Part shown: positions 31,601 through 43,600 of the stretch, piece after piece
How positions within the stretch are numbered: position 1 is the first letter of the stretch
Layout: the number at the start of each line of letters is the position of its first letter
Assembly: GCA_964616165.1 (NCBI GenBank)
Contig: CAZTTS010000001.1
Span: forward strand, 17,537 to 81,536
Length of the DNA stretch: 64,000 nt
Direction of reading: 5' to 3'
Source of the DNA: an uncultured Lachnospiraceae bacterium
GTDB taxonomy: Bacteria; Bacillota; Clostridia; TANB77; CAG-508
Program-made: the position numbers

Positions 31601-34600
31601 AACAGTCCTTTAGCTGACTTTAAAAAGAATTTTGATAAATATTTAGATAGAAGCAATATTATTGATATGTTTCTATTTTATGAAATGATTTTTGATCACG
31701 ATGCAATGTCATATGACACAATTGTAGTAACATATGATTTAGACAAGTGGTTCTTTTTACCTTGGGATAAAGACTCTACTTTTGGAATGAGATTTGATGA
31801 TGGATTATATGAAAATTCAGAAAACAGAATTTTATTTGATGCAGTAAAAGAAGAAAGAAATCAAATTCTTTGGCATAAAACATATAATGCCTTTAAAAGC
31901 GAAATAGAAAATAGATATAAAGATTTAAGAGATAAAGGAGTTTTTACAGTAGACAATATTGATAAACAAATAGATATAATTTACTCTAAAATTCCTAAAT
32001 TTTTATTAAAAAGAGAAGAAATAAAATGGTCTGGCAGAGCATCAATAGGTCAAACAGACAGATATCAAATTATAGATTGGTTTGGTAAAAAACTTCAGAC
32101 TTTAGACGAATACTTTAATTATAAGAAATAGCAAATAAAACAATTAAAATAAAAAAAACAGATAATTTAAATAAAAAATCTTGGAGAAAACTTGATGTTT
32201 AAAAACATATATGTGAATAAAAAAAGAACAAAAAAAGATTATATTATTTATACTACTATAGCTATATCAATTATAGTTATAGTATTTTCTATGGTTTTTA
32301 GCATTATATTATTACAAAAGCATACTATTAATATGCGAGCCATAAGAGAACGAGAAGAACATTTGAAAAAAATGGCTGAATTAAAATATTTAGAAGAAGA
32401 AAGACAAAGGAAAGAGAAAGAAGAAAAGATAGCAAGAGAGTTAGAAGAGGATGCTAAACTGCAACTACTAAGTACAGCACAAAAAGAAAGAGGAGATTTT
32501 AAATATAATACTAATGTACAAGAAGAGCTTGATAAAATATTTTATTCAGACCAGAAAGAAGTATATTTAACTTTTGATGATGGTCCTTCTAAACATACAA
32601 ATAAATTATTAGATGTTTTGAAAGCAGCAGATGTTAAAGCTACATTCTTTATTCTTGGTACTAATATTAAAGGAAGAGAAGCAGAAGTAAGAAGAATATA
32701 TAATGAAGGACACACTATAGCAAATCATAGTTTTTCACATAAATATGCTAGTATATATAAAAATCCGGAAGCAACTTTTAAAGAATATAATAAAACAGAA
32801 AAGGAATTAAAGAAGATTTTAGGTGAAGATTTTAATAGTAATCTTTTTAGATTTCCAGGTGGCTCTGTTGGCGGAGAATATGAAAAACAAAAAAAACAAA
32901 GCAGAGAATATTTTAAAAAACAAAAAGTTGCTTTTATTGATTGGAATGCATTAACTGATGACTCAGTAGGAGCAGAAACAAATAAAAAACAGTTAGAAGT
33001 ATTTAACAAAACAAGAAAGGGTAAGAATGCTTTAGTTGTTTTACAACATGATTCATATACTAGTGATAAAACTGCAGGAACAGTAAAATTAATTATAGAA
33101 CAATTAAAAAAAGAAAAATATGTGTTTAAAAACTTTAATGATATTTTAGTAAAAGAAGAAATAAAAAAAGAAGTAGAAGAAATAAAAAATAATACAACAA
33201 TGCAAGAAACTTAATTATAAAGCATAGGAGCTAATAATTATGAAAAAAGAAAACTTTAATCAAAAAAGAGCAGCCTCAGAGTTTAGGAACAGATGGAAAG
33301 ATAGAGGTTATGAAAAAGGAGAAGCTCAACCTTTTTGGTTGGACTTATTACAAAATGTGCTGGAAGTAGAAAATCCAGTAGACTTTATCAAGTTTGAAGA
33401 TCAAGTTCTTATGGATAGCTCAACAGGTTTTATGGATGGATATATTTCTTCAACTAAAGTTTTAGTAGAACAAAAAGGTGTTAATGTAGATTTAAGAAAG
33501 AATATTAGACAATCAGATGGGAGCTTTAAAACTCCATTTCAACAAGCTAAAAATTATATAGCTAATCTACCGTACTATAAACATCCGAGATGGGTAGTTA
33601 CTTGTAATTTTAAATCTTTTCTAATATACGACATGAATAAGCCACATGAAGAACCAAAAGAAATTCTTTTAGAAAACTTAGACAAAGAATACTATAGATT
33701 ACAATTTATAGTAGATGAAACGAATGAAAATATAAAACCAGAAGTAGAAGTTTCTATTCAAGCAGGAGAATTAGTTGGAGTATTATATGATTTGTTTTAT
33801 GAACAATATGTTGATAAAACGGATCCTGATAGTTTAAAAAGTTTAAATAAATTATGTGTAAGACTAGTTTTTTGTTTATATGCAGAAGATGCAGACTTAT
33901 TTGGTAAAAAAGGAGCTTTTCATGATTACTTAACAAAATTTGATGTAACAACAATGAGAAGAGCTTTAATAGATTTGTTTAAAGTATTAAATACTGAAGA
34001 AGATAAAAGAGATCCATACCTAGATGAAGATTTAGCTCAATTTCCATATGTAAATGGTGGATTATTTGAAGATGATGATATTGAAATTCCTAACTTTACT
34101 GAAGAAATAAGAGAAACACTTCTGAAAAGAGCATCAGACAATTTTAATTGGTCAGAAATTAGCCCAACTATTTTTGGAGCAGTTTTTGAATCAACATTAA
34201 ATCCAGAAACGAGAAGGTCAGGAGGAATGCACTATACCTCTGTTGAAAATATTCACAAGGTAATTTATCCATTGTTTTTGAATGATTTAAACGATGAATT
34301 TGAAGAAATAAAAAAATTAAAGCAGAAGAAAACTAGAAATGAAAGATTAGAAGAATTTCAAACTAAATTAGGAAAACTTACTTTTTTAGAAATGACATTT
34401 GCTTAATTGATACAATAAAACTATTTAAGAATGCCATGAAATCAAAGGAATTTAAAGGTGGATAAATTTAAGAGCTATTAAAATAATAGTAAATAGACCT
34501 CAAAACTGAGATGAGGGTCTTTTTTATTTTATAGGGGTGTGTAGTTTTTAAGGTAGGGTGTCAAGAAATTTTAAGGGGGTATCTATTTGATGAAGTAGAC

Positions 34601-40600: not shown

Positions 40601-43600
40601 AAAGATACAATAATTTTAGATTCTTTACAGCTAATAGAAAATCCAAATTTGCTTTTGTTAGGATTATTAACTTCAAACGTGCATATGGCCTGGATGAGAA
40701 CTATTGCTGGGAGATTAAAGTCTGATTATCGATATTCAGCAAAAATAGTATACAACAACTTCCCTTGGCCAAATGTAACATCTGAACAAAGGGTAAAGAT
40801 CGAAACTACTGCACAAGGAATATTAGATGCAAGAGAACTATATCCTGATTCATCATTAGCAGATTTATATAATGAATTAACAATGCCTCCTGAGCTAAGA
40901 AAAGCACATGAATTAAATGATAAAGCAGTAATGGATGCATATGGATTTAAGTCTAATATGAGTGAGGCAGAGATAGTTGGTGAACTTATGAAATTATATC
41001 AAAAACTTGTTGAAGAAGAATAGAAAAGAGATGTATTTTAAATATGTCATAAAGGTTACAAACACTTGAAAAATAAAGAATAAATATATATAATAACAAT
41101 GTATTTAAAGAGTGCTTAAACGTTTTCGTTTAAGTATTATATATGAAAAAAAGAAGGAAAATATGAGCGAAGAAGTACAAAATAATGTAAACGAAGGAAG
41201 AATTATTGAAAGATCTGTTTCACAAGAAATGAAAACAGCATATATGGATTATGCAATGTCTGTTATTGTTTCACGTGCTTTGCCTGATGCAAAAGACGGA
41301 ATGAAACCAGTTCATAGAAGAATAATATATAATATGTATGAAAATGGTCTAGGATCAAATAAACCATACAGAAAAGCAGCTTCAACAGTTGGAGATGTTT
41401 TAGGAAAATATCATCCACATGGAGATTCATCTGTTTATGATGCCATGGTTAGACTTGCACAAAACTTCTCTATGAGATATTTACAAGTTGATGGACACGG
41501 AAACTTTGGTTCTATTGATGGAGATCCACCAGCAGCTTATCGTTATACGGAAGCAAGACTTACTAAATTATCTGAAGCAATGTTAGAAGATATTGATCAA
41601 GATACAGTAGATTTTTCTCCTAATTTTGATGGAAGACTATACGAACCAACTGTGCTTCCTACAAGAGTACCAACATTGTTACTTAATGGATCTTCAGGAA
41701 TTGCTGTTGGTATGGCTACAAATATGCCTCCACACAATATTACAGAAGTTATTAATGGAATGGTAGCATATTTAGATAATAGAGATATTGACACAAAAGG
41801 TTTAATGAAACATATATCTGGACCTGATTTTCCAACAGGAGGATTAATTCTAGGTAAAAAAGGAATAGAAGAAGCATATGAAACAGGTAGAGGTAAGTTA
41901 AAATTAAGAGGTGAGGCTGTTATTGAACAAGTTTCTAATACAAAACAAAGAATAATTATAAAATCATTACCTTATCAAGTAAATAAAGCAAGACTAATAG
42001 AAAACATTGCAAATTTAGTTAAAGACAAAAGAATTGAAGGAATATCAGATATTAGAGATGAATCAGATAAAGACGCAATGGTTAGAATTGTTATAGAGCT
42101 AAAAAGAGATGCTAATGCTAAAGTTGTTTTAAATACATTATATAAACATACTCAACTAGAAGCTACTTTTGGAATTATAAATCTTGCATTAGTAAATAAT
42201 CAACCTAGAATATTAACTTTAAAAGAATTAATAGAAGTATTTATTGAACATAGAAAAGATGTAATAATTAGAAGAACAAAATATAATTTACGAAAAGCAG
42301 AAGAGAGATTACATATTTTAGAAGGTTTAAAAATTGCTATTGATAATATTGATGAAGTAATACAAATAATTCGTTCATCATATGATGATGCAAAAGAAAG
42401 ATTAATGGCAAGATTTGGTTTTTCTGAAGTTCAAGCACAGGCCATTTTAGATATGAGATTAAGGACACTACAAGGGCTACAAAGAGAAAAGATTGAGGAA
42501 GAGTATAATGAGATAGTAGAATTTATTGCCTTCTGTAAAGAGATTTTAGGAAGTGATGTAAGGCAATATGAAATTATTAAGCATGAACTTTTAGAAATGC
42601 AAAAGAAATTTGGAGATGAAAGAAAAACTCAAATTGTTTTTGATCCAGGTGATATTGAGATAGAAGATTTAATAGAAGAAGAGGAAGTTGTAATTACATT
42701 AACTCATTTTGGATATATTAAAAGAATGCCTATTGACACATATAAGAGCCAAAAAAGAGGTGGAAAAGGTATTACAGGACTTTCAACTAGAGAAGAAGAC
42801 TTTGTTAAAGAAATATTTACAGCTTCAACTCATGATACTATTTTGTTTTTTACTAATTTAGGAAAATTATATCAATTAAAAGCATATGAAATTCCAGATG
42901 CTGGAAGAACTGCAAGAGGAACAGCCATTGTTAATTTAATTACTCTAGATCCAGGTGAAACTGTTACAGCTATTATGCCAATTCAAAACTTTGCAGATGA
43001 TGCATATCTTTTGATGGGAACAGAACAAGGAATGGTAAAGAAAACTAAATTAACCGAATATGACACAAATAGAACTAGAGGATTAATAGCCATAAATTTA
43101 AAAGAAGATGATAAATTAATGTCTGTTAGATTAACAGATGGACAATCATTTATAATGCTTATTACTAAAAAAGGTTTATCAATAGCATTTGACGAAAAAG
43201 AAGTAAGAATGACAGGAAGAGCATCACAAGGTGTTATTGGAATTAGACTAGATCAAGGAGATCAATTGATAGGAATGGAAGCTGTAGCAGCTCCAGAAGG
43301 ATTAACTTTACTAACTATTACAGAAAATGGATTTGGTAAGAGAACTGATCTTGCTGAATATAGAGCTCAAAAAAGAAGCGGTAGAGGAGTATTAACCTAT
43401 AGAGTAACTAGTAAAACTGGAGAAGTTGTTGGAGCAAGAGTGACAGAGGGAACAGAAGATGTAATGTTAATTACTGAAAAAGGAACTATTATTCGTCTTC
43501 ATGTAAAAGATATAAATATTCTAGGAAGAGCAACTCAAGGAGTAACACTAATTAGAACAAGAGATGATGCTAAAGTAGTTGCAATAGAAACTATAGTAGA

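Follow-up and report, generated by a model that had tools for sequence, protein, structure and literature searches.

An MmeI-family restriction-modification gene interrupted by a recombinase-less two-module cassette with serine-recombinase-like attachment ends

We analyzed a 64,000-nucleotide stretch of DNA (the window) from an uncultured Lachnospiraceae bacterium (NCBI GenBank assembly GCA_964616165.1, contig CAZTTS010000001.1, positions 17,537 to 81,536). In this window, a gene of the MmeI family, a family of restriction-modification (R-M) enzymes, is interrupted by an insert that carries a second, HaeIII-like R-M system. The genes at the locus, all on the + strand, are as follows (aa, amino acids).

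33240..34390, + strand: 5' part of the MmeI-family Type IIL/IIG gene (endonuclease, helical spacer and linker), GA core included
34495..34531, + strand: weak hairpin and T-run upstream of the methyltransferase gene (fold -8.4 kcal/mol, z -0.79)
34728..35714, + strand: M.HaeIII-like C5 cytosine methyltransferase, intact, 328 aa (PF00145, 1.7e-110)
35733..36704, + strand: R.HaeIII-like restriction endonuclease, intact, 323 aa (PF09556 RE_HaeIII, 8.1e-132, profile positions 1-298 of 298)
36750..37520, + strand: hypothetical protein, 256 aa, the last gene of module 1 (singleton cluster)
37603..37821, + strand: 3' fragment of comF, a ComFC-type phosphoribosyltransferase gene, from VIDDIYTTGAT to the stop (TIGR00201, 6.3e-5, profile positions 157-190 of 190)
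37963..38541, + strand: PDC-M11B-like protein, 192 aa (PADLOC PDLC04425, 7.9e-15; phrog_3136, 3.5e-14)
38480..39352, + strand: decayed class-I aminoacyl-tRNA-synthetase (aaRS)-like gene (phrog_35625 'tRNA synthetase', 1.1e-6)
39406..41023, + strand: 3' part of the MmeI-family gene, from motif I (DPACGSG) onward (methyltransferase, target recognition domain and C-terminal domain)

The two outer parts were compared with Pfam and with MmeI (PDB 5HR4). The open reading frame (ORF) at 33240-34406 contains the MmeI_N (3.3e-33) and MmeI_hel (8.5e-22) domains and aligned to MmeI over residues 9-360, ending at KLRGLTFF. In the occupied allele this ORF extends to 34406 with the tail EMTFA before its stop codon, the C-terminal sequence being ...KLGKLTFLEMTFA. 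The frame open from 39374 covers positions 18-258 of the 259-position MmeI_Mtase profile (3.8e-84) and contains MmeI_TRD and MmeI_C; its earliest canonical in-frame start in the ORF list is a TTG at 39446, downstream of motif I. Together, the two halves hold all five Pfam MmeI domains, and joining them restores the complete MmeI architecture. In this family a single polypeptide combines the MmeI_N nuclease, a helical spacer, a gamma-class N6A methyltransferase (motif I DPACGSG, motif IV NPPF), the target recognition domain and the C-terminal domain. When spliced conceptually (...KLTFL + DPACGSG...), the product aligned in one piece, residues 9-919, to MmeI residues 9-903 (E 1.5e-185), and 33240-34390 and 39404-41023 are halves of one MmeI-family gene, split at motif I as a first-pass annotation of this DNA had proposed. 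All but one of the 120 listed homologues are single proteins of ~920 aa or longer. An ancestral two-gene arrangement is ruled out by these full-length homologues and by an uninterrupted copy of the gene (contig L001, below). No record of the exact N-terminal-fragment protein was found on lookup. The 5,015 bp break the reading frame, which meets a stop 5 codons inside the insert. Because the 5' ORF ends there and the 3' part has a canonical start only past motif I, the gene is, by its reading frames, dead, and no functional enzyme should be possible.

The uninterrupted copy lies on contig L001 (ENA ERZ12298774), from another metagenome, and reads ...KLGKLTFLDPACGSGNFL... across the junction. 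Its protein, P0113, is truncated by the contig end, is 100% identical to the conceptual splice, and is the one homologue among the 120 that is not full length. L001 positions 1-1270 correspond to window 33121-34390 (99.84% nucleotide identity), and positions 1264-1719 to window 39399-39854 (99.78%). The alignment revealed a simple insertion of exactly 5,015 bp in the window, in agreement with the ~5.0 kb estimated at first, and TAGA stands on both flanks of the insert (34387-34390 and 39402-39405). The last ~46 nt of L001 (1720-1765) had no match in the window and give an odd protein tail (QIGRASCRERV); they are probably technical contig-end sequence.

Independent support for both junctions came from Logan unitig L002 (5,071 nt; other read sets, 3 samples), whose sequence matches window 34361-39431 with 100% identity and comprises the insert and exactly 30 nt beyond either junction. 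Since L002 spans both junctions in independent read sets, an assembly chimera is ruled out. The Logan graph was built with k=31, and the 30-nt flanks suggest branch points of the graph at both junctions; occupied and empty alleles therefore probably coexist in those samples. The arrival of the cassette inside the MmeI-type gene is recent.

The first two genes of the insert encode a methyltransferase and an endonuclease, both intact, with 18 nt between them. The methyltransferase aligned to M.HaeIII (1DCT) at 2.7e-161 across residues 1-324, with the target recognition region covered, and the endonuclease matched the whole RE_HaeIII profile. By homology the pair is a HaeIII-type Type II R-M system with a predicted specificity for GGCC, as had been recognized at first reading. 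Although the encoded system is of the GGCC type, the insert is free of GGCC sites (2.7 expected); the remainder of the window, belonging to the host, contains 23 against 20.9 expected, showing no avoidance; the numbers are small in both cases. In GC content the insert (0.257) equals the host (0.263). The insert had also been credited with a terminator of its own. The weak hairpin and T-run at 34495..34531 are present, but a terminator scan of the window did not call them. The 256-aa hypothetical protein had no match in Pfam, NCBIfam, PADLOC or PHROGs.

The 192-aa protein farther downstream had been read as an ASCH protein. A Pfam search returned no match for it; in PADLOC it matched PDC-M11B, a candidate defence component, as did the related proteins of loci L003 and L058 (7.9e-15 to 4e-17 for the three). 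The adjoining aaRS-like gene consists of two ORFs with an in-frame stop and ~84 internal residues gone. When an intact 361-aa relative from L058 was searched against the window by tblastn, its residues 31-164 and 249-353 were found in one frame; this relative matched PF01921 weakly (6.1e-6, under the curated cut-off). The decay described at first is thus confirmed, while the label glutamyl-tRNA synthetase has no Pfam support and class-I aaRS-like is the better description. PDC-M11B-like loci stand beside a class-I aaRS-like gene in the window (37963-38541), in L003 (1851-2270) and in L058 (12642-13052), and the aaRS-like partner carries HIGH-like and KMSKS-like motifs. The pairing may be a defence system; PADLOC, which has no model for the aaRS-like partner, returned no match for the gene adjoining the M11B-like gene, and the copy in the window is decayed.

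We further examined the ends of the insert. The sites referred to below are as follows; a slash marks the border of a GA dinucleotide.

34389..34390, + strand: left GA copy, the proposed crossover core; last bases common with the empty allele and symmetry centre of the terminal repeats
34391..34430, + strand: left end (LE), P'-type half-site, AATGACATTTGCTTAATTGATACAATAAAACTATT...
37553..37604, + strand: internal right end (R') with GA at 37603-37604, ...AATAATTTAATTGTATTAAATAGGAGAAGTTATT; 20/21 to the right-end core
39344..39403, + strand: right end (RE), P-type half-site, ...AATAATTTAATTGTATCAAATGTGTAAAGGTTATA; inverted-repeat partner of LE
39404..39405, + strand: right GA copy; all four right-end junctions read GTTAT-N-GA

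Alignment of LE with the reverse complement of RE gave 27 matches in 40 positions, in register 0 about the GA only; registers shifted by -6 to +6 gave 7-17 matches. Among 200,000 random window pairs the mean was 12.1 (sd 3.1, maximum 26), and none had 27. The strongest conserved block, TTGATACAAT, lies 17-26 bp from the GA on both arms, and conservation of the arms reaches 26-35 bp from the centre. Joined together, LE and RE would form a pseudo-palindromic attP-like site, ...TTGTATCAAATGTGTAAAGGTTATA-GA-AATGACATTTGCTTAATTGATACAA... The attP site of large serine recombinases (LSRs) is a pseudo-palindrome with 25-bp half-sites, in which the zinc-ribbon domain contacts bp 16-24 (PMC3783163), so the block at 17-26 bp on both arms fits an LSR half-site.

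Right ends recur in related loci, and among RE, R' and the right ends of L037 and L058 conservation extends over ~50 nt. The junctions read GGTTATA/GA in the MmeI gene and AGTTATT/GA, GGTTATC/GA and GGTTATA/GA in comF, so that the base before GA is A, T, C and A at the four right ends (contexts n=3). The comF target is GTTGTT/GA, and the right end in L058 has A before GA where this target has T; the right-end tip ...GGTTATA/GA seen in the MmeI gene is thus also present at a comF site. GA is present at both junctions and in the empty MmeI site. Because the base before GA in L058 differs from the target, and because the terminal repeats are in register only about GA, the shared core is probably the 2-bp GA, at which a 2-bp crossover would have taken place, and the additional TA probably represents the element's own bases. 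The 4-bp TAGA duplication proposed in the first-pass annotation is accordingly not favoured.

Other copies of the ends, or an autonomous relative, were also sought elsewhere, in each case without success. In GTDB species representatives the right-end core gave 31 matches, all of them chance matches, none followed by AAGGTTATNGA. Two patterns for the ends gave 0 matches each in JGI metagenomes, and searches of IMG/VR gave 0 matches and 19 chance matches. A search of plasmids and phages with the reconstituted RE-GA-LE junction returned weak AT-rich matches only.

The insert had been regarded as a single cassette with a stray piece of comF; it is better described as a composite of two modules with a fossil junction between them. 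Module 1 comprises LE, the M.HaeIII-like and R.HaeIII-like genes, the hypothetical gene and R'. Module 2 comprises the comF 3' fragment, the PDC-M11B-like gene, the decayed aaRS-like gene and RE, and its proteins have close relatives in other assemblies. R' (37553-37602) is a third copy of the right-end type, lying inside the insert in addition to the terminal pair, and is linked through GA to the comF fragment. The identity of this fragment, correctly named at first reading, is supported by the 226 nt at window 37596-37821, which are 98.7% identical to the 3' end of the intact comF of L036 and 97.8% identical to L058. Homology to L036 begins at 37596, where L036 reads AGTTgTT/GA/TGAT and the window AGTTaTT/GA/TGAT. 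The internal junction is therefore a former integration site in comF; in its sequence, R'-GA-comF is a fossil attR-type junction. The encoded ComF (window 37597-37815, L036 and L058) has a ~38-residue C-terminal extension past the end of the TIGR00201 model. Since homologues at 62-67% identity share this extension, it is native and not a fusion artefact.

Relatives of module 2 are stacked behind comF in other loci. L058 is a single 26-kb contig (ENA ERZ27280753 k141_773302) with an array at positions 10001-13507. Its gene order begins with valyl-tRNA synthetase, a second class-I aaRS gene (554 aa), an intact comF and a 108-aa recombinase remnant. These are followed by a 71-aa ORF, the intact 361-aa aaRS-like gene, the PDC-M11B-like gene and a right end (...GGTTATA/GA). 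Next come another copy of the comF 3' part, which matches the first at 220/225 positions, and the beginning of a window-type module 2, 95.5% identical to window 37553-37906. The R'-GA-comF junction of the window, from 37553, is likewise 95.5% identical to the R-GA-B2 junction of L058. In L003 and L037 a variant of module 2 ends ...CAAGGTTATC/GA/TGATATT..., again in comF, and the C-R-GA-B adjacency of L037 is compatible with either a circle or a tandem array. In L060, which is more distantly related (71% ComF identity), genes for an ABC transporter and for glycolysis lie downstream of comF. The comF array is therefore inserted DNA.

Relatives of module 2 also contain a 108-124-aa remnant that matches the C-terminal ~120 residues of genes annotated 'recombinase family protein' (E down to 1e-16). 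Because an exhaustive protein search matched it only to the C-termini of Recombinase + Zn_ribbon_recom proteins (34-38% identity), the remnant is, by homology, the 3' end of an LSR gene. The same search returned one fragment at 65% identity and otherwise relatives at 30-47%, those of full-length size at 34-38%. The contig of the 65% relative is a gapped 659-nt scaffold, and a word-indexed search returned the same fragment only. The insert contains no recombinase gene (Pfam), and tblastn with two LSRs found no serine recombinase in the 64-kb window, as the first-pass annotation had held for the insert. No intI gene or integron platform was found in the insert or its flanking genes (Pfam), no window-wide search for tyrosine recombinases having been made. 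The first-pass annotation had left the insertion mechanism unnamed; the attP-like ends together with the LSR remnant in the relatives of module 2 now point to a candidate.

We propose, with a probability of roughly 0.55, that the insert is a non-autonomous composite of two att-bounded modules that a TnpX/TndX-like serine recombinase, acting in trans, has moved. Module 1 would have lain in comF upstream of module 2, after an earlier integration into comF. Recombination between LE and the distal RE, bypassing R', would have freed both modules together. The composite would then have left its former site as a circle with the predicted junction RE-GA-LE, ...GTGTAAAGGTTATAGAAATGACATTTGC... An LSR of the TnpX/TndX type, encoded elsewhere, would have integrated this circle into the MmeI gene, with LE and RE as the P' and P arms of the attP-like site and with strand exchange at the GA in TTA/GA/TCC. 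Its action would have to be in trans, because the insert encodes no recombinase. The proposed cleavage corresponds to that of TndX, which makes 2-bp staggered cuts at GA, and Tn5397 is bounded by GA repeats, a central GA being the sole constant of its targets (PMC3672683, PMC4430133). The insertion, which falls just before motif I, divides the gene between its nuclease part and the part for methylation and recognition. In one step, it inactivates a single-polypeptide enzyme and installs an intact GGCC-type system.

Several observations weigh against this proposal. Searches of the insert and of the 64-kb window turned up no intact recombinase, nor did the exhaustive search return one closely related to the remnant; moreover, the remnant sits in relatives of module 2 rather than in the insert, and it need not derive from the composite's mover. 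Only two independent targets are on record, namely the MmeI gene and comF, and the GA specificity rests on those. Beyond T-N-GA, the two targets have no clear likeness to the ends or to each other; target-to-end similarity was tried and gave 9-18 matches in 36, the background level. Only one LE is known, and no other LE-type site was present in any locus compared. Finally, the modules of the comF array start with a comF 3' copy and not with LE, and a simple attP x attB history fails to account for this. Repair of comF by homologous exchange and recombination between right ends are both possibilities for such module starts.

The insert might instead be a non-autonomous DDE-type transposon, a mobile insertion cassette resembling a miniature inverted-repeat transposable element with cargo, whose transposase lies elsewhere and which made a short TAGA or GA duplication. 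Imperfect terminal inverted repeats, a short direct repeat and a clean empty site would all be expected of such an element, and transposase-less R-M units flanked by imperfect inverted repeats have already been described (PMC2853133). The inverted repeats, however, are 2 nt out of register with a 4-bp duplication and fit only a 2-bp repeat, and at the comF site the base preceding GA is the element's and not the target's. No transposase or insertion sequence (IS) with matching ends was found in the window, GTDB representatives, JGI metagenomes, IMG/VR, plasmids or phages, and the serine recombinase remnant is the sole trace of a mobility gene in the element family. We regard a DDE-type origin as unlikely.

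Similar doubt attaches to a tyrosine recombinase (Tn916-Int-like or Xer-like) acting at the same centre with a 6-8-bp overlap and tolerating heterology, the next alternative in our ranking. Inverted arms about a short centre are also the layout of a tyrosine core site, with the same centre of symmetry, which is a further point against a serine recombinase. The junctions share 7 nt of near-identity (TTTTAGA against TTATAGA), and the comF-array module is flanked by 225-nt direct repeats of the 3' end of the target gene (220/225), as in many elements with tyrosine integrases. On the other hand, the overlap would be heterologous at 2 of 6 positions (TAGAAA in the element, TAGATC in the target). 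The arms, conserved to 26-35 bp with a peak at 17-26, fit an LSR half-site better than core arms of 9-13 bp, and no tyrosine recombinase gene or remnant was seen in the related loci. A cassette system using folded single-stranded sites (integron attC-like, or IS200/IS605- or palindrome-associated-transposable-element-like), with a structured right end on each module, is very improbable: although every module ends in the same ~50-nt sequence, as integron cassettes do, and the target TTTTAGA resembles the right-end tip TTATAGA, as in IS200/IS605, the model is disfavoured because no hairpin is conserved among the right ends (the fold of RE is no more stable than that of shuffled sequences, z +0.12, and R' adopts another fold), and in addition neither intI nor an HUH transposase was seen in the insert or flanking genes and LE is an inverted copy of RE, which such systems do not need.

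The first-pass annotation had also ascribed the event to selfish competition between R-M systems. As a description, the destruction of one R-M system by another stands; competition or targeting as its cause is not supported. There is no evidence that the element seeks R-M genes: comF is the other target known for its family, and the nearest intact homologue of the MmeI gene has a different neighbourhood. This homologue (71% identity, 921 aa) is found among unrelated metabolic genes (L062, GCA_040364275.1; L063), and the host R-M gene itself is therefore not at a conserved locus. Since comF is the only other known target of the element family, the R-M gene looks like a by-product of a loose, GA-centred choice of site. 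In MmeI, nuclease, methyltransferase and recognition functions all reside on one chain. Because restriction and modification would be lost together, loss of such a gene should not be lethal, and the gene should be a tolerated landing site.

The split gene lies in an origin-proximal region: dnaA, dnaN, a recF-like gene and gyrB were identified by Pfam at window 7783-13678 and 41112-43613. The distance from gyrB to gyrA is ~27 kb, a stretch that includes the split R-M gene as well as genes for CotH-like proteins and polysaccharide deacetylase. The coding strand changes at about 7 kb and 43.7 kb of the window.

The locus documents cleanly an R-M system that travels on an element which is very small and has no recombinase, and from its sequence a mechanism can be put forward that is specific enough to test (crossover at GA by an LSR working in trans). 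It also shows that one event can both abolish an R-M gene of the single-polypeptide kind and supply a functional replacement. From the fossil junction inside the insert and the arrays at comF, it seems that small defence cassettes accumulate as modules and are mobilized together. A broader idea, which we put forward as speculative and rather doubtful, is that in this lineage comF anchors an integron-like platform built on serine-recombinase att sites instead of attC/IntI, holding tandem small defence modules (R-M, PDC-M11-like), every one of which would have the common ~50-bp right end and GA at its terminus. If so, modules would be reshuffled at their right ends and could exit as recombinase-free composites into unrelated genes, which would constitute a new route of defence-gene exchange.

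The insert can be compared with four kinds of known system. After splicing, the interrupted gene has the same full architecture as MmeI (Type IIL/IIG, PDB 5HR4), from which it differs in being split at motif I. Like Tn4451/Tn4453 and Tn5397, which are moved by TnpX and TndX, the insert has GA at either end as well as in the target, together with imperfect inverted ends and no long duplication; targets are loose and include conserved-motif coding DNA, Tn5397 entering a Fic-domain coding sequence (PMC3672683, PMC4430133). Elements of the Tn4451/Tn5397 type encode their own LSR, whereas the insert does not, hence the proposed movement in trans; they carry antibiotic resistance or conjugation genes where the insert carries defence cargo. 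The R-M units with imperfect inverted repeats described by Furuta, Abe and Kobayashi (2010, PMC2853133) share with the insert a few additional ORFs, a short direct repeat, an empty site known from a close relative and the lack of a mobility gene. Those units have 8-bp duplications, 26-65-bp repeats and no assigned mechanism, while the insert has a 2-bp GA core, a serine-recombinase-like site geometry and two modules, and lies inside another R-M gene.

Classical cis-mobilizable elements (CIMEs) derive from integrative and conjugative elements with tyrosine integrases and lie at the 3' ends of tRNA or other genes. The insert resembles them, and tandem accretion in general, in its att-bounded DNA without a recombination module of its own, in the comF arrays and in the possible joint excision through the outermost sites. 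It differs in its 2-3-kb modules, in its link to a serine recombinase and in the transfer of one composite to an unrelated site. Transposase-less R-M units with inverted repeats (PMC2853133) and GA-specific LSR transposons are thus already known. What is new here is a recombinase-less, two-module defence cassette with LSR-att-like ends and an internal fossil junction, whose relatives are stacked behind comF and which has landed in a Type IIL gene.

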